UHGV virus genome: UHGV-0043901
Direction: 5' to 3' (one strand)
Source: a virus
DNA: 9,047 nt
A program made the position numbers and the translations under genes. Below are positions 50 to 8,462 of the stretch, one piece after another; positions within the stretch are counted from its first letter, which is position 1; every line of letters begins with the position of its first letter. Below the pieces are notes generated by a model that saw only the letters and a list, made by a program, of their open reading frames with translations, was not told the origin of the DNA and did no database searches.

Positions 50-1288
50 ATGAGCAGCGCAATTCATAGACTTAGCGACACTCTTTTACGAAAATTAAGC
101 GGATCACCAACCACAAAAAACGCCTTTTTTAATGACGGTGGCAATCTTAGCGTAAGACATTCCACCAGCGGCCTGTTAACCTGGTATTTCACTTACAGGG
201 CCGGAACTGGTAGGCAGATATCACCGGAACGTCTGAGGCTGGGCAATTATCCCGATCTGAGCCTGAAAGCTGCCAGGGAAAAAGCGGCACAGTGTCGCGC
301 CTGGCTGGCTGAGGGGAAAAATCCGCGCTATGAACTTAATCATGCTGTACAGGACGCGTTAGCCCCCGTGACGGTTAAGGAAGCGCTCACTTACTGGCTT
401 GAATCGTACGCAAAGGAAAAGCGCACTGACTACGAATCACTGAAAAGCCGGATCAATAAACACATAATTAGCCAGATTGGCGCTATGCCACTGGAAAAAT
501 GCGAGCTACGCCACTGGCTGGCCTGTTTTGACCAGCTTGCTAAGCGTAATCCGGTATCAGCCGGATTTTTGCTACAGGTATGCAAACAGGCGCTTAAGTA
601 CTGCCGAAAACGACGATACGCAATCAGCAACGTTCTTGATGATATGGTTGTCGGTGATGTTGGGAAAAAAGCAGAAATAAGCGAGCGCGTACTAACAAAC
701 AAGGAGCTTGGGGAATTACTACGCGCCCTGGATGAAAAAATTTACCCACCGTACTACAGCGCCATGATTCGCCTCCTGATTGTCTTCGGATGTCGTACCA
801 CTGAGCTAAGACGCTCTGAGGTCCAGGAATGGGATTTTAAAGAAATGCTCTGGACCGTGCCGAAAGAACACAGCAAAACGAAGGTAGCAATATTCAGGCC
901 AATACCGGAAGCGATCTTGCCGTTCTTAACGAAGCTGGTGGAGCAGAACAGGCACACGGGATTATTGCTCGGAGAACTGAAAGGGCAATCATCCGTATCA
1001 GAGTACGGAAGAACGGCACACAGACGCATTAATCAAGCCCCCTGGACGTTGCACGACATCCGGCACACGTTTACAACGATGCTGAACGATTTAGGCGTGG
1101 ATCCTCATGTAGTGGAGCAGCTTACCGCGCACCAGTTGCCAGGAATGCAACGAGTCTATAATCACTCCCGTTATCTTGATGCAAAACGTGACGCTCTTAA
1201 TCTATGGGTTGAGCGTCTCGAGCTTCTCCAGAACAATGATGAAAAAATCGTTGTTATGACCCCGCGAATTTACTCCCAAAATTCTTGA
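50..1288 (+). CDS. int: Tyrosine recombinase / site-specific integrase, P4-like family (N-terminal arm-binding DUF4102-type region plus C-terminal catalytic domain)
   Basis: 412-aa ORF; N-terminus LSDTLLRKL...LSVRHSTSGLLTWYFTYR...LRLGNYPDLSLKAAREKA matches the P4-integrase N-terminal pattern; C-terminus has HDIRHTF (His-x-x-Arg-His) and a downstream Tyr in RVYNHSRY consistent with tyrosine recombinase catalytic residues. Confidence 0.9.
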   Translation: MSSAIHRLSDTLLRKLSGSPTTKNAFFNDGGNLSVRHSTSGLLTWYFTYRAGTGRQISPERLRLGNYPDLSLKAAREKAAQCRAWLAEGKNPRYELNHAVQDALAPVTVKEALTYWLESYAKEKRTDYESLKSRINKHIISQIGAMPLEKCELRHWLACFDQLAKRNPVSAGFLLQVCKQALKYCRKRRYAISNVLDDMVVGDVGKKAEISERVLTNKELGELLRALDEKIYPPYYSAMIRLLIVFGCRTTELRRSEVQEWDFKEMLWTVPKEHSKTKVAIFRPIPEAILPFLTKLVEQNRHTGLLLGELKGQSSVSEYGRTAHRRINQAPWTLHDIRHTFTTMLNDLGVDPHVVEQLTAHQLPGMQRVYNHSRYLDAKRDALNLWVERLELLQNNDEKIVVMTPRIYSQNS

Positions 1289-2888: not shown

Positions 2889-3188
2889 ATGAGAACATAT
2901 TTATCTGGCTTGACTGCCAGCGGTTATGCACACCCCAAAATTATCCCCGGCGCTATTTATCTGGATAAGAACGGTAACAGAGTAACGGTAAAAGAACTGA
3001 TGTTTGACCGTGTTTATTTTATCCGTGATGGATATTCATTTCTTAGTTCGCTGAACGTGGAGATCTTTATTTGCAGATTCCGGCGGGAAATCCCGACTTC
3101 CAGAAATAACCATGTGTCATGTATGGATGTTGATAAAAAACTACAGGAACTAAAAAACATGATTGCCGCGTGGAGAGAGCAGAAATGA
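2889..3188 (+). CDS. Hypothetical protein (99 aa), translationally coupled to the primase gene
   Basis: Stop TGA at 3186-3188 overlaps the primase ATG at 3185-3187 (ATGA overlap). Confidence 0.5.
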   Translation: MRTYLSGLTASGYAHPKIIPGAIYLDKNGNRVTVKELMFDRVYFIRDGYSFLSSLNVEIFICRFRREIPTSRNNHVSCMDVDKKLQELKNMIAAWREQK

Positions 3189-5002
3189 AAAAAGCGCCAA
3201 ATTTAAAACACCAGCCACGTGACAAAATGACGGAAGTCATCATTTTTGCGGGTAGTGATGCGTGGGCACATGCGAAGCAGTGGCAGGAACAGGACGGGCG
3301 ACTGGCTGGCGACAGCGTGCCTCCTGTCTGGCTTGGAGAGCAACAACTTGCCGAACTGGACAACCTGCAAATCGTACCGGACGGACGCTATCGCGTGCGT
3401 CTCTACCAGGCGGGGTTATTGCGTCCGGGGCTTGTTAATACCATCGGGCAGAAACTGGCAGCGGCAGGTGTCAGGGATGCTGATTATTACCCTGAAGGAA
3501 TGCACAGCCAGAAACGGGAGAACTGGCGCGAATATCTGGAACGTGAACGGGCAGAGCAGGCGGAAAAGAAAAAGGTAGTTGAACTGCCTGTAAAGAAAAA
3601 AGAGCGGGTAAAAGACGATAACGCTTCATCACTGGCGCTTAACCAGATGGGAGCAAGTCAACGCGGCGAAGTTCTCCTGGCACATTATGGCGGTGAACTG
3701 GCGATTCATGCTGACTCTGACACTGTTCACTATTACAACGGCGTTGTATGGGAGCCAGTACAGGATAAAGAATTACAGCGAGCTATGGCACAGATTTTCA
3801 TTGATGCGGAGATCAGCTATTCGCAGAACGCCATTAAATCGGCGGTCGATACCATGAAGTTAAGTTTGCCTGTAATGGGGAATACAGCCCGTAACCTGAT
3901 TGGATTCAGTAACGGTGTTTTTGATACCCGGACAGGCGATTTTCGGGAGCATAACAAAAACGACTGGTTGTTAATTGCCAGTGAATTACCTTTCAGCCCA
4001 CCAGCAGAGGGGGAAACGCTGGCAACACATGCGCCGAATTTCTGGAAGTGGTTACGCCGTTCGGTGGCTGAGAATGACCGCAAGGCGGATCGCGTACTGG
4101 CTGCATTATTCATGGTGCTGGCGAACCGGTACGACTGGCAGTTATTCATTGAGGTAACAGGTCCAGGGGGAAGTGGTAAAAGCGTGATGGCGGAGATTTG
4201 CACCATGCTGGCGGGTAAGGCCAACACAGTATCGGCAAGCATGAAGGCGCTGGAAGATGCAAGGGAACGCGCGTTAGTGGTTGGCTTTTCGCTGATTATC
4301 ATGCCGGATATGACCCGCTACGCTGGTGATGGGGCAGGGATTAAGGCTATTACAGGCGGTGACAAGGTGGCAATTGACCCGAAACACAAAGCCCCCTACT
4401 CAACGCGTATTCCGGCAGTAGTGCTGGCGGTTAACAATAACGCCATGTCATTCAGTGACCGCAGCGGGGGGATCTCACGTCGTCGGGTGATATTCAATTT
4501 TTCGGAAGTTGTACCGGAGAACGAACGCGATCCAATGCTGGCGGAAAAAATAGAAGGTGAGCTGGCGGTAGTGATTCGCCATCTGCTTACACGGTTTGCT
4601 GACCAGGACGAAGCCAGACGCCTGTTATATGAGCAGCAGAAATCTGAAGAAGCACTGGCGATAAAGCGAGAGGGGGATTCGCTGGTGGACTTCTGCGGCT
4701 ATCTCATGGCGTCGGTAATGTGTGATGGTCTGTTAGTGGGTAATGCTGAAATTGTGCCATTCAGCCCACGCAGGTATCTCTATCATGCCTATCTGGCTTA
4801 TATGAGGGCACATGGGTTTGGTAAACCTGTAACACTGACGCGCTTCGGTAAAGATATGCCGGGGGCAATGGCGGAATATGGCAGGGAGTATATGAAACGG
4901 AAAACGAAGCACGGTTTTCGTTCAAACGTGACACTGACGGAGGAATCAGAAGACTGGATGCCATCATGTGTATCGGTCACTAATGACGATAGTAAAAATT
5001 AA
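3185..5002 (+). CDS. Replication initiator: P4-alpha / D5-type primase-helicase with P-loop NTPase (SF3-like helicase) domain
   Basis: About 605 aa from ATG 3185 (GGAGAG Shine-Dalgarno 7 nt upstream; the track start at 3170 is in frame). Walker A GPGGSGKS encoded at 4160-4183; downstream hydrophobic strand plus acidic residues (LIIMPDM) consistent with Walker B; lies immediately upstream of an iteron array. Confidence 0.88.
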   Translation: MKKAPNLKHQPRDKMTEVIIFAGSDAWAHAKQWQEQDGRLAGDSVPPVWLGEQQLAELDNLQIVPDGRYRVRLYQAGLLRPGLVNTIGQKLAAAGVRDADYYPEGMHSQKRENWREYLERERAEQAEKKKVVELPVKKKERVKDDNASSLALNQMGASQRGEVLLAHYGGELAIHADSDTVHYYNGVVWEPVQDKELQRAMAQIFIDAEISYSQNAIKSAVDTMKLSLPVMGNTARNLIGFSNGVFDTRTGDFREHNKNDWLLIASELPFSPPAEGETLATHAPNFWKWLRRSVAENDRKADRVLAALFMVLANRYDWQLFIEVTGPGGSGKSVMAEICTMLAGKANTVSASMKALEDARERALVVGFSLIIMPDMTRYAGDGAGIKAITGGDKVAIDPKHKAPYSTRIPAVVLAVNNNAMSFSDRSGGISRRRVIFNFSEVVPENERDPMLAEKIEGELAVVIRHLLTRFADQDEARRLLYEQQKSEEALAIKREGDSLVDFCGYLMASVMCDGLLVGNAEIVPFSPRRYLYHAYLAYMRAHGFGKPVTLTRFGKDMPGAMAEYGREYMKRKTKHGFRSNVTLTEESEDWMPSCVSVTNDDSKN

Positions 5003-5535: not shown

Positions 5536-5942
5536 CAGCACAGATAGCAGCTTACGGGCGGCTGGCAAGTGACCCGCAGTTAAAGACCACCAGCAAGGGC
5601 ACACAAATGGCTATGGCGAGCATGGCGGTCCCCCTGCCGTGCAGCCAGTCGGATGACGGTCAGGCGACGATGTGGTTATCTGTTCTGGCGTTTGGCAGAC
5701 AAGCCGACGCGCTGGCAAAGCATCACAAAGGCGAACTCCTGAGCGTGGCGGGTAACATGCAGGTGAGTCAGTGGACTGGACAGAACGGTGAAACGCGGCA
5801 GGGCTGGCAGGTTATCGCAGACAGCGTAATCAGTGCGCGAACGGTGCGACCGGGCGGGAACAGACGCAAAACCACAGGCACACAGGGTAATCAGCCACCA
5901 GCGGGAGACGATGACCCCTACGGTGATGATATTCCGTTCTGA
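5532..5942 (+). CDS. ssb: Single-stranded DNA-binding protein (OB-fold SSB) with canonical acidic C-terminal tip
   Basis: 136 aa; N-terminal IAAYGRLASDPQLKTTSKGTQMAMASMAV and conserved Trp and Lys-Gly positions fit the SSB OB fold; Gly/Gln/Pro-rich linker; C-terminus DDDPYGDDIPF ends in the DDIPF tail also seen in E. coli SSB. GAGGTGG Shine-Dalgarno. Confidence 0.8.
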   Translation: MTAQIAAYGRLASDPQLKTTSKGTQMAMASMAVPLPCSQSDDGQATMWLSVLAFGRQADALAKHHKGELLSVAGNMQVSQWTGQNGETRQGWQVIADSVISARTVRPGGNRRKTTGTQGNQPPAGDDDPYGDDIPF

Positions 5943-5950
5943 ACGCACAG

Positions 5951-5973
5951 GCCGGAGAAAATCCGGCTTTTTG
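5951..5973 (+). terminator. Rho-independent terminator (GCCGGA-GAAAA-TCCGGC plus T5)
   Basis: 6-bp GC-rich stem with 5-nt loop and TTTTT tail, 9 nt after the ssb stop. Confidence 0.7.
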
Positions 5974-5984
5974 TATCCAAAAAA

Positions 5985-6021
5985 AGCCCGATAAGTACAG
6001 GAGGAAGCTTATCGGGCTTTT
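5985..6021. terminator. Second hairpin (AGCCCGATAAG - 12 nt loop - CTTATCGGGCT) flanked by an A-run upstream and T-run downstream; possible bidirectional terminator
   Basis: 11-bp perfect stem at 5985-5995 / 6008-6018, A6 at 5979-5984 and TTTT at 6018-6021. Confidence 0.4.
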
Positions 6022-6095
6022 GCTTACGAGGTTAACAGCATGGTGACTACTGTTGCTGTAAATCATTTCATAATTTGCAACGTAACTCAATTTTA

Positions 6096-6123
6096 TTGCA
6101 CAAAATGCAATCATGATTATAAT
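6096..6123 (+). promoter_or_regulatory. Candidate sigma70-type promoter for the head-gene operon (TTGCAC - 16 nt - TATAAT), overlapped by a 14-bp perfect palindrome ATGATTATAATCAT (6113-6126)
   Basis: -35-like hexamer at 6096-6101 and consensus -10 at 6118-6123; the palindrome embeds the -10 and is a candidate operator. Confidence 0.4.
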
Positions 6124-6157
6124 CATAACTGGATGAACATACAGTTATGATTTTTTA
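6122..6157 (+). promoter_or_regulatory. AT-rich hairpin (ATCATAACT - 12 nt - AGTTATGAT) followed by a T6 run in the 5' leader of the head operon; possible attenuator / terminator
   Basis: 9-bp exact inverted repeat at 6122-6130 and 6143-6151, then TTTTTT at 6151-6156, between the putative promoter and the first Shine-Dalgarno (AAGAGGA at about 6163). Confidence 0.3.
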
Positions 6158-6179
6158 AGTCAAAGAGGAATTTCTGACT

Positions 6180-6386
6180 ATGGCAGAAGAGAAAAAAGGC
6201 GGTGTTTCGGTGTACATAAGCCCCGAAATCGTGGAGGTGCTCAAGCAGCGCCACAAAAAAAACTATGAGGCTGGCGTGGCGGCTGGACTGGATCCGCTGA
6301 TGACGCCGGAGCCGTCGATAGGTTCACTTGTGCGCTCTTATTTACTTGCGGCGCTTGGGATGCATAAAAATTATGGGGGTGAATAA
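6180..6386 (+). CDS. Small protein (68 aa), first gene of the head operon; possibly ribbon-helix-helix-like
   Basis: Strong Shine-Dalgarno AAGAGGA; stop TAA overlaps the capsid ATG (TAATG at 6384-6388); pattern VSVYISPEIVEVLKQ then helices is compatible with a ribbon-helix-helix fold, but this is weak. Confidence 0.5.
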   Translation: MAEEKKGGVSVYISPEIVEVLKQRHKKNYEAGVAAGLDPLMTPEPSIGSLVRSYLLAALGMHKNYGGE

Positions 6387-7452: not shown

Positions 7453-7788
7453 ATGGACACTCCATACATTGAGTTATTTGCAGGCAGTCAGCAGGTCGCC
7501 ACGACGCTGGTACATTTTGCCGCTGATGCTGGCGTTATTCAGGAATTTACCCCGCTGATGCTGGCGGACAATGGCGAGTTTAAGCCGTGGGATGGTAAGG
7601 AATCTGGCAAGGCTGTTTATCTGACCTCGTACCCTGTTGACACGTCAAAGCAGAAATCAGCACAGTGTTACAAGATGGGGATATTCAATATTGCCGCCGT
7701 TAACTGGCCTGAGAGCGTCGACACCGATGCGAAAAAATGCGCCGCCTTTGCGGGTTCTGGCGTATCCGTTCAGCCGCTGGCCCGATAA
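7453..7788 (+). CDS. Head decoration protein, lambda gpD family
   Basis: 111 aa versus 110 aa for gpD; shared TPLML, WDG, YK-G-F, WPE, D-x-KK-x-AFAG-x-x-S blocks with recalled gpD; GGGGGAT Shine-Dalgarno; immediately follows the capsid gene. Confidence 0.75.
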   Translation: MDTPYIELFAGSQQVATTLVHFAADAGVIQEFTPLMLADNGEFKPWDGKESGKAVYLTSYPVDTSKQKSAQCYKMGIFNIAAVNWPESVDTDAKKCAAFAGSGVSVQPLAR

Positions 7789-7800
7789 GCAGGGGGAACG

Positions 7801-8214
7801 ATGGCAACGAATGAAAGCATCATGACGCTACCGCTGGCGAGTAAATTTAAAGCCGAAGCGCGGGCAATGGCTGACAGAGGGTTATCAACCTACGAGGCCA
7901 TATATCAACTTAACAAACTGGAAGAGCAGGACAAGCCGCGCGCTGATGCGATTATGGCGCTTGATGAATCTGGCGACTATCAGCCGCTGTTACGTGCAAT
8001 GGCAAACGTGCCTTGTATCGATGTTGGTACGGCTAAAAGCATCCTTAGCATGACCATAGAGCAGGAACGTCTGAAGGTTGCGCCGGAACTTACCGCAGCC
8101 TTTGAAAACTTTATGGACATGCACAGCCCGCAAGCCGTATCAGCTGGCATGGCATACGATGGCAGAAACCAGGGCGATGACGGCGACATCGATCGCATAC
8201 TGAAAACCATCTGA
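7801..8214 (+). CDS. Hypothetical protein (137 aa), last gene of head module, no recognisable family
   Basis: AGGGGGAA Shine-Dalgarno 3 nt before the ATG; acidic, protein-like composition; followed 6 nt later by a strong terminator. Confidence 0.55.
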   Translation: MATNESIMTLPLASKFKAEARAMADRGLSTYEAIYQLNKLEEQDKPRADAIMALDESGDYQPLLRAMANVPCIDVGTAKSILSMTIEQERLKVAPELTAAFENFMDMHSPQAVSAGMAYDGRNQGDDGDIDRILKTI

Positions 8215-8220
8215 GACAAG

Positions 8221-8242
8221 GCCGGAGAAATCCGGCTTTTTT
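8221..8242 (+). terminator. Rho-independent terminator (GCCGGA-GAAA-TCCGGC plus T6), near-identical copy of the 5951-5973 terminator
   Basis: Same stem sequence as the terminator after ssb, loop one A shorter, T6 tail. Confidence 0.7.
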
Positions 8243-8244
8243 AC

Positions 8245-8440
8245 GGGTCCTTCCTGGAATTATGGCCCGTTACGGGGCGGCGACCTCGCGCGTTTTCGCT
8301 ATTTATGAAAATTTTCCGGGGAAAATCATGTCGGTACTTCTCGAACATAACTATTTGTTTTTTCTAATATCGAATCCGTAAAAGGTCCGACATGAAAACG
8401 CCTGAAAAAGTCATTTTCGGGCACTCTCATGTCGGCCCCT
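8245..8440 (+). other. cos site (cohesive-end packaging site): cosQ-like region, cosN (GGGCGGCGACCT at 8275-8286) and cosB with three R-like sites
   Basis: 8245-8319 is nearly identical to the recalled lambda cos region (GGGTCCTT-CC...TTACG GGGCGGCGACCT CGCG-GTTTTCGCTATTTATGAAAATTTTCCGG). Downstream R-site positions are collinear with lambda R3-I1-R2-R1, but the repeats read CATGTCGG (8327-8334, plus), CCGACATG (8387-8394, minus), CATGTCGG (8428-8435, plus) instead of lambda CGTTTCC. Distance from cosN to the terS ATG (188 nt) matches lambda (cos to Nu1, 190 nt). Confidence 0.85.
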
Positions 8441-8462
8441 GTATTTGCTATGAGACTATTTC

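Follow-up and report, generated by a model that had tools for sequence, protein, structure and literature searches.

The window, that is, the complete 9047-bp stretch of DNA analysed here (UHGV virus genome UHGV-0043901), is, judging from its gene content, most of an E. coli cos-type phage-inducible chromosomal island (PICI) of the EcCICFT073 type (Table 1). It shares the gene order of EcCICFT073 and carries the succession that characterizes this type of cos PICI, namely int, alpA, a primase/replication gene, an accessory block, cos, and a gene for either Rpp or the small terminase (TerS). Its size, compared to ~10 kb for such elements, and the lack of lysis and tail genes, as judged from domain matches, are likewise those of a PICI of this type. 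Related islands in E. coli chromosomes cover 86-93% of the window at ~92-94% identity (megablast), and one of them is sited between cspD/yljB and clpS. The island has neither a portal nor a protease gene, and an ORF and domain scan of the window found no S49 peptidase anywhere. EcCICFT073 lies in the roxA/phoQ region and contains a PerC-family regulator gene, whereas the island in the window is of the cspD/clpS site type and lacks this gene. Both EcCICFT073 and the closest E. coli island have the PerC gene between SSB and the head block; it is absent from the window at 5942-6180, compared to 29960-30208 in locus L008 and 10209-10481 in locus L001. Two near-identical terminator hairpins, AGGCCGGAGAAAATCCGGCTT and AAGGCCGGAGAAATCCGGCTTT, are located at 5949-5969 and 8218-8239, the former ending the replication block after SSB and the latter ending the head block.

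Table 1. Features of the island in the window and of the 137-aa protein encoded by the last gene of its head block.
Feature	Position	Strand	Remarks
Tyrosine integrase	50-1288		Domain match
Small HTH/AlpA-like ORF			After the integrase
DUF4222 protein			Between the HTH/AlpA-like ORF and the primase
D5-type primase	3170-5002		Domain match
phrog_1231 protein			After the primase, before SSB
SSB			After the phrog_1231 protein, before the 68-aa ORF
68-aa ORF (phrog_3255)	6180-6386	+	c1498 orthologue; first gene of the head block; overlaps the start of the capsid gene
Lambda-E-type major capsid protein, 351 aa	6386-7441	+	Pfam Phage_cap_E; would be the client of the putative scaffold
Lambda-D-type head decoration protein, 111 aa	7453-7788	+	Pfam HDPD
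Shine-Dalgarno sequence AGGGGGA	7791-7797	+	Read from the sequence
137-aa ORF	7801-8214	+	c1501 orthologue; acidic, predicted all-helical, stand-alone Nu3-like scaffolding-domain protein
Intrinsic-terminator-like hairpin	8218-8243	+	9-bp stem, GAAA loop, U run; ends the head block
cosQ-cosN, lambda type	8244-8319	+	12-nt cohesive-end sequence GGGCGGCGACCT at 8275-8286
Full-length Nu1-type small terminase (TerS), 194 aa	8463-9047	+	Occupies the position of RppA in EcCICFT073
137-aa protein: putative degenerate first repeat unit	Residues 1-46
137-aa protein: clear Nu3 repeat unit	Residues 47-90
137-aa protein: FENFMDMHSPQAV motif (FExFMxxHSPxAV)	Residues 96-112
137-aa protein: disordered acidic linker	Residues 109-126
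137-aa protein: conserved C-terminal helix (IDRILKTI)	Residues 128-137

The last gene of the head block starts with an ATG located 3 nt downstream of its Shine-Dalgarno sequence and encodes an acidic protein (pI 4.58; 22 D+E vs. 14 K+R). Just past the stop codon, the hairpin AAGGCCGGA-GAAA-UCCGGCUUU is followed by a U run; the 43-nt hairpin region has a folding energy of -16.9 kcal/mol (z -2.4), and the hairpin was not among the calls of a simple terminator scan. The head block is tightly packed, with an overlap (ATGA) between the 68-aa ORF and the capsid gene and gaps of 11-12 nt between the other genes, and lambda-type cosQ/cosN lies directly 3' of the 137-aa gene and its hairpin. An initial annotation of this DNA, made from the sequence alone, had described an acidic 137-aa ORF with a Shine-Dalgarno sequence and a terminator in the last slot of the head block before the packaging site, and all of these features are borne out. 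The ORF is a real gene under purifying selection. It is intact, with 137 codons, in 79 of 80 IMG/VR copies, which comprise 41 distinct nucleotide alleles on 80 contigs; the pooled pN/pS of these copies is 0.30, and the median pairwise dN/dS is 0.27 (738 pairs), whereas the capsid and decoration genes have values of 0.135 and 0.10, respectively. One rare decayed copy (L022) has an internal stop in this gene together with a truncated capsid gene, and in the genome JNE151685 (NZ_AP027258.1; H56/H92) the capsid and decoration genes are kept and the 137-aa gene is reduced to its last 59 nt. The 68-aa ORF at the other end of the block has no Pfam match and no similarity to lambda W despite its equal length; its alleles in the sister loci fall into two main classes, with ~100% and ~68-69% identity, and one locus has 80%.

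The 137-aa gene is the counterpart of c1501, a 414-bp gene that E. coli CFT073 carries in EcCICFT073 behind those for the capsid and decoration proteins. Its product agrees with that of c1501 (WP_000224596.1) at 135 of 137 residues, and the published primers with which c1501 was cloned into pBAD18 have exact matches in the window on either side of the ORF, at 7747-7767 and 8217-8237; the reverse primer (PMC6739421) falls on the 3' hairpin. The neighbours (c1498, c1499 encoding the capsid protein, and c1500 encoding the decoration protein), the terminator, and cos are the same as well, making this the same gene in a sister island. Databases list the protein as 'hypothetical protein' or, for some NCBI alleles, 'phage head-tail connector protein', and a word-indexed protein search retrieved near-identical E. 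coli proteins only. The element, the gene, and the absence of a phenotype are thus already in the literature, in which our search found no published function for c1501 and no paper connecting PICIs with Nu3 or this gene with a scaffold. We suspected that the 'c1501::tetA' marker had broken the head block in all published EcCICFT073 work, but mapping of the recombineering primers ruled this out, since tetA was placed just after the c1501 stop codon, leaving the ORF intact. In a later EcCICFT073 derivative, the marker is located in c1504-c1507.

By sequence comparison, the 137-aa protein is clearly homologous to the lambda-like Nu3 scaffolding domain, of which it is a shortened, stand-alone relative. 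In phages, this domain has two forms, being the C-terminal third of gpC (the S49 head protease) and, made on its own, the protein Nu3. The homologous span comprises residues 47-131 and corresponds to the C-terminal (Nu3) part of a 501-aa S49 head protease of lambdoid phages. In profile searches, residues 45-119 match positions 494-567 of 583, the C-terminal end, of PHROG 53 'head maturation protease' (E 3.8e-8), and the family of the protein itself, phrog_1999, carries a function-unknown label. A tblastn search against 50,697 phage records gave a single match, which falls within the final 80 codons of a C/Nu3 gene (501 aa) in phage PhiR12_2_star. With BLASTP, the 137-aa protein is 37% identical over 83 residues to positions 416-493 of the 501 residues of this gpC (E 3e-10) and 36% identical to its counterpart in the CFT073 icd prophage (E 2e-9), and the pairwise comparisons with 501-aa gpC proteins altogether range from 36% to 37% identity with E 1e-8 to 3e-10. 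EcCICFT073 has prophages of the CFT073 icd type as its natural helpers (PMC10111431). Alignment of the protein family to nine Nu3 regions with hhalign yielded a probability of 96.9% (E 1.5e-10). An exhaustive phmmer search of 1.84 billion representatives returned 10 matches, the informative ones being P0040, discussed below, and P0041, a 195-aa protein corresponding to the Nu3-sized C-terminal part of S49 peptidases such as the 501-aa gpC.

Among the head proteins of lambda and the helper, gpC is the sole match, and no similarity was found to W, D, FI, or FII of either phage, in line with the initial annotation, which had recognized no similarity to lambda FI, FII, or W. The annotation had also seen no resemblance to Nu3. 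This is correct for the Nu3 of lambda itself, against which BLAST gave nothing, but fails at the family level in the PHROG 53, tblastn, BLASTP, and hhalign comparisons; lambda Nu3, marginal by phmmer (E 0.02, 13-protein set), is too diverged for BLAST, which explains the earlier verdict. Pfam and NCBIfam scans of the 137-aa protein gave no match even at E 10, the Nu3 regions of lambda gpC and helper gpC are likewise without any Pfam model, and a scan of genome contigs for the protein gave no matches. The assignment corrects the database names 'hypothetical protein' and 'head-tail connector' and flags a scaffolding domain that neither a Pfam family nor a solved structure yet covers.

The Nu3 region of the 501-aa gpC contains three ~40-residue units (R-I-M-x-L-x-E-A-x-G-R-E...P-G-M-T...A-x-x-I-L), after which follow F-E-x-F-M-x-x-H-S-P-x-A-V, an acidic segment, and a short hydrophobic terminus. 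Lambda Nu3 has one repeat unit, and its tail lacks the FExFMxxHSP motif, which is common to the 137-aa protein and the 501-aa type. In a global alignment, the 137-aa protein matches the last two units and the tail of the 501-aa gpC, up to both C-termini. It is devoid of the protease and of the first Nu3 repeat. Two copies of the ~40-residue helical unit, IM.L...(R)A(M/L)A..P....A..IL, are kept, of which one is clear and the other degenerate. The match of residues 49-83 to the repeat unit is significant (HMM, E 9e-6; hhalign, E 2e-7) and that of residues 4-42 is weak (E ~0.01). The two units are in register at a 44-residue period (I7/I51, M8/M52, L10/L54, and RAMA at 21-24/65-68), which is suggestive of a second, N-terminal repeat unit. 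Three natural variants of 93 aa (P0025, P0028, and P0030) have lost exactly 44 residues, the length of one repeat, in frame between the RAMA motifs; their existence speaks for an internal duplication and shows that shorter forms are in circulation.

An AF2 model calculated with a 16-sequence alignment (pLDDT 77) predicts a helical domain at residues 3-107, in which 10-residue blocks mostly exceed 85, disorder at 109-126, and a last helix formed by residues 128-136; from the sequence of the protein alone, the pLDDT was 43. The model has no structural neighbours among solved or predicted viral structures, because no Nu3 structure is available for comparison, and when PDB sequences were searched with profiles of the 137-aa protein family and of the Nu3 family, all matches (FliG, designed repeat proteins) were due to chance or composition. 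Of the profile and structure searches that the initial annotation had proposed, the former thus led to the C-terminal domain of gpC/Nu3 and the latter to no neighbour. Taken as a whole, the Nu3/gpC proteins (PHROG 53; the 501-aa form of CFT073 icd-like, PhiR12, and Gifsy-type phages) share with the 137-aa protein the repeat unit, FExFMxxHSPxAV, the acidic linker, the hydrophobic terminal helix, the pI (4.58 vs. 4.53-4.57 for Nu3), the all-helical prediction, and a location beside D-type and E-type genes. They differ in size and repeat number (~200 aa with three repeats in the 501-aa form vs. 137 aa with one clear and one degenerate repeat; ~36% identity) and in gene order, which is C/Nu3-D-E in the phages and E-D-Nu3-like in the island. 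Moreover, phage Nu3 is nested in frame within the protease gene, whereas the 137-aa ORF is free-standing with its own Shine-Dalgarno sequence, not in frame inside the 3' part of a protease gene C, and is carried by a satellite that has neither portal nor protease.

The head block formed by c1498, the E-like and D-like genes, and the 137-aa gene is collinear in 80 of 80 IMG/VR loci, with fixed spacing wherever full-length matches permit measuring. In the same 80 loci, integrases share 21-96% and primases 37-99% identity, and the TerS/Rpp modules vary as well. Among 5426 complete E. coli genomes, the E and D segment is present in 598 and the 137-aa gene in 593 (~11%). As is typical for Nu3, the 137-aa gene thus lies in a head cluster together with E-type capsid and D-type decoration genes. 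The island capsid protein shares 44% of its residues with lambda E and 47% with the E of the helper type, and none of the phages in the collection exceeds the latter value. Since no phage capsid is more than 47% identical, the block represents an old, satellite-specific lineage that has been maintained rather than a recent capture. The same block in a more distant island contains P0040, a 41%-identical homologue of the 137-aa protein; as the capsid and decoration proteins of that island are 84% and 83% identical to those of the window, the 137-aa protein evolves much faster than its neighbours. The parts kept in P0040 are the N-terminal end, the core of the repeat, and IDRILKTI, the final eight residues. 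Scaffolding proteins usually combine rapid evolution with conservation of the end that binds the coat.

The packaging functions of the island lie downstream of the head block. Positions 8244-8274 align to the right end of lambda (cosQ region, ...GTTACG), and 8275-8319 equal the left end at 44 of 45 bases, including the cohesive-end sequence. The region at ~8320-8460, where lambda has cosB, is diverged, which fits an island-specific TerS/cosB pair. EcCICFT073 has RppA (144 aa) after cos, whereas the window has a full-length Nu1-type TerS, which shares only the HTH with RppA. This TerS has 56% identity to lambda Nu1 in a 180-residue alignment and 68% identity to the TerS of the CFT073 helper prophage (~90% across the first 110 residues). 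In the 80 sister loci, the slot after cos is occupied by a TerS 47-61% identical to that of the window, by RppA, or by neither; thus, the packaging module is swapped independently of the head block. One of these loci (L080) has a TerL fragment, 78% identical to the N-terminus of the helper TerL, directly after TerS (4348-4614), which suggests that occasional islands have a longer captured late region. On the basis of these sequence comparisons, packaging specificity belongs to the TerS gene and not to the 137-aa gene, whose product gave no HTH or Nu1 match in Pfam or PHROG. We therefore rejected packaging redirection by the 137-aa protein, a role that the initial annotation had considered: the Nu1 domain is encoded by the next gene, and transfer persists when c1498-c1501 are replaced (PMC10530653, PMC10460865).

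Given the homology to the Nu3 domain and the strict linkage to the E-like capsid and D-like decoration genes, which both support a scaffold, one of the options named by the initial annotation, we lean towards an internal scaffold for the island's own capsid protein, a role for which we infer both binding and scaffolding activity. Nu3 binds E and itself and is required for prohead assembly (PMC3224144). By analogy, the 137-aa protein would be co-expressed with the E-like capsid and D-like decoration proteins of the island during late growth of the helper, its conserved C-terminal helix would bind the inner face of the island capsid protein, and self-association of its helical domain would chaperone the assembly of a shell around the helper portal, after which it would be cleared by the helper protease or by exit. 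Since the island has no portal or protease, any such shell would need those of the helper, and these parts may not fit the island capsid protein, which is only ~45% identical to that of the helper.

Published genetics of EcCICFT073, in which the block showed no phenotype, count against this scaffold role. Deletion of c1499 (capsid) or c1500 (decoration) left transfer and lambda interference unchanged, and with lambda as helper the packaged EcCICFT073 DNA was of phage size throughout (PMC6092414), which lends no positive support to the suggestion of a size-determination protein. When the post-origin genes were cloned singly, including c1501 in pBAD18 (pJP2216), only c1503 (RppA) blocked lambda (PMC6739421). 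The initial annotation had seen in the ORF a candidate for helper interference and had proposed a plaque assay with the ORF alone; this published experiment speaks against such a role, as lambda plaques were unreduced by c1501 on its own. Transduction by phage 80 also persisted when c1498-c1501 were swapped for cas9 or melA (PMC10530653, PMC10460865). All these tests used lambda and phage 80 as helpers and transfer and plaques as the only readouts, leaving room for a role with other helpers or in the composition of the particles.

With suitable natural helpers, the c1498-E-D-Nu3-like block might even be a working shell cassette that builds an own decorated capsid, scaffolded by the 137-aa protein, on the helper portal, but we regard this extension as rather improbable. 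If true, the helper would supply only the portal, the protease, the large terminase, the head-completion proteins, and the tails; the island would represent, within the lambda type, an intermediate form, since classical PICIs steal capsids whole and cf-PICIs take nothing but tails; and the missing phenotype would be explained by helper capsids that make those of the island redundant in the laboratory. The capsid genes of Gram-negative PICIs have been a puzzle since 2018, because their deletion has no phenotype. New relative to the papers searched is the recognition of the 137-aa protein as a putative Nu3-type scaffold, which would turn the block into a coat-decoration-scaffold set, so that these islands would hold the lambda-type shell trio and not a stray capsid gene. 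This offers a tangible starting point for explaining why capsid genes are retained by Gram-negative PICIs, without demonstrating a new mechanism. As engineered EcCICFT073 vectors routinely drop c1498-c1501, it is also of practical value to know what is removed with them.

The foremost alternative is that the protein is a decoy that mimics the capsid-binding end of the helper Nu3/gpC, binds the capsid protein of the helper or of a competitor phage, and perturbs prohead assembly, protease loading, or capsid size, similar to SaPI CpmB. Its closest relatives are indeed the C-terminal ends of the 501-aa gpC of the natural helper type of EcCICFT073, the gpC proteins of helper prophages that physically carry such islands are also close, the first Nu3 repeat is missing as it might be in a dominant-negative fragment, and faster evolution than that of the neighbouring genes is compatible with an arms race. 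Yet the identity to the helper Nu3 is only ~36%, with IDRILKTI in place of DVKMLMAMP in the terminal helix, and this helix is invariant alongside the island's own capsid protein, to whose gene a decoy would need no strict linkage. Expression of c1501 from pBAD18 did not reduce lambda plaques, and deletion of c1503 alone restored plaques (PMC6739421); packaging into small capsids was not seen with the lambda helper (PMC6092414). These tests used lambda, whose Nu3 tail lacks the FExFMxxHSP motif, which tempers the negative outcome for plaques, but overall we consider a decoy unlikely.

A functionless remnant, that is, a truncated Nu3 fragment without a role left from a decaying lambdoid head operon that was captured by an ancestral island, appears more doubtful still. 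Such a remnant would account for the lack of a phenotype in any published test, for the truncation relative to Nu3, and for the occasional decayed copies, such as that with an internal stop, the 93-aa deletion variants, and the genome with only the last 59 nt. It is difficult to reconcile with 79 of 80 copies being intact and of equal length, with the dN/dS of 0.27 over 738 pairs, and with the persistence of an unchanged block across islands that have exchanged their other modules and in the island with the 41%-identical homologue; the absence of phage capsids above 47% identity, moreover, marks the block as old and maintained. Finally, a head-tail connector, head-completion protein, or FI-like packaging chaperone, as might be surmised from the name of several NCBI alleles ('phage head-tail connector protein'), the size and acidity resembling lambda FI, and the location after the capsid and decoration genes, is very improbable, and identity with FI, FII, W, or a connector was rejected, as no connector, adaptor, or FI family of Pfam, NCBIfam, or PHROG was matched, W, FI, and FII of lambda and the helper showed no similarity, and significant matches were confined to the gpC/Nu3 domain; the name 'connector' probably echoes 'head-tail preconnector', an old label of gpC/Nu3.

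Returning to the internal scaffold as the preferred reading, several satellite systems offer a comparison. CpmB of SaPI1, which together with CpmA is an alternative internal scaffold, is likewise a small helical satellite protein whose C-terminal end is related to the helper scaffold, and like CpmB the 137-aa protein is a candidate to act inside procapsids. The two have no sequence relationship, however, and CpmB acts on the capsid protein of the helper to form small capsids, whereas the island in the window supplies a capsid protein of its own, and small capsids were not observed when its sister island was packaged by lambda. Homologues of helper capsid proteins are also found on other cos or Gram-negative satellites, as exemplified by Ccm of SaPIbov5 and those of PmCI172. 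These redirect capsid size, and no dedicated scaffold gene has been described for them, while the capsid gene in the window is accompanied by decoration and putative scaffold genes and has no known size change associated with it. The cf-PICIs (e.g. EcCIEDL933) encode their own head-shell proteins, too, but as a complete HK97-type set (TerS, TerL, portal, protease, capsid, and connectors), whereas the island in the window has only shell, decoration, and putative scaffold proteins plus TerS, all of the lambda type.

The same head block also occurs on three larger IMG/VR contigs (L070, L083, and L084; 21-54 kb), on which the island lies inside a lambdoid prophage, with residues 270-518 of the helper portal protein, followed by gpC, E, and FII, encoded downstream of the island. 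By their gene arrangement, these are helper-embedded PICIs inserted into the portal gene. The helper gpC on one of the contigs (L084) is 96% identical to the 501-aa type of CFT073.
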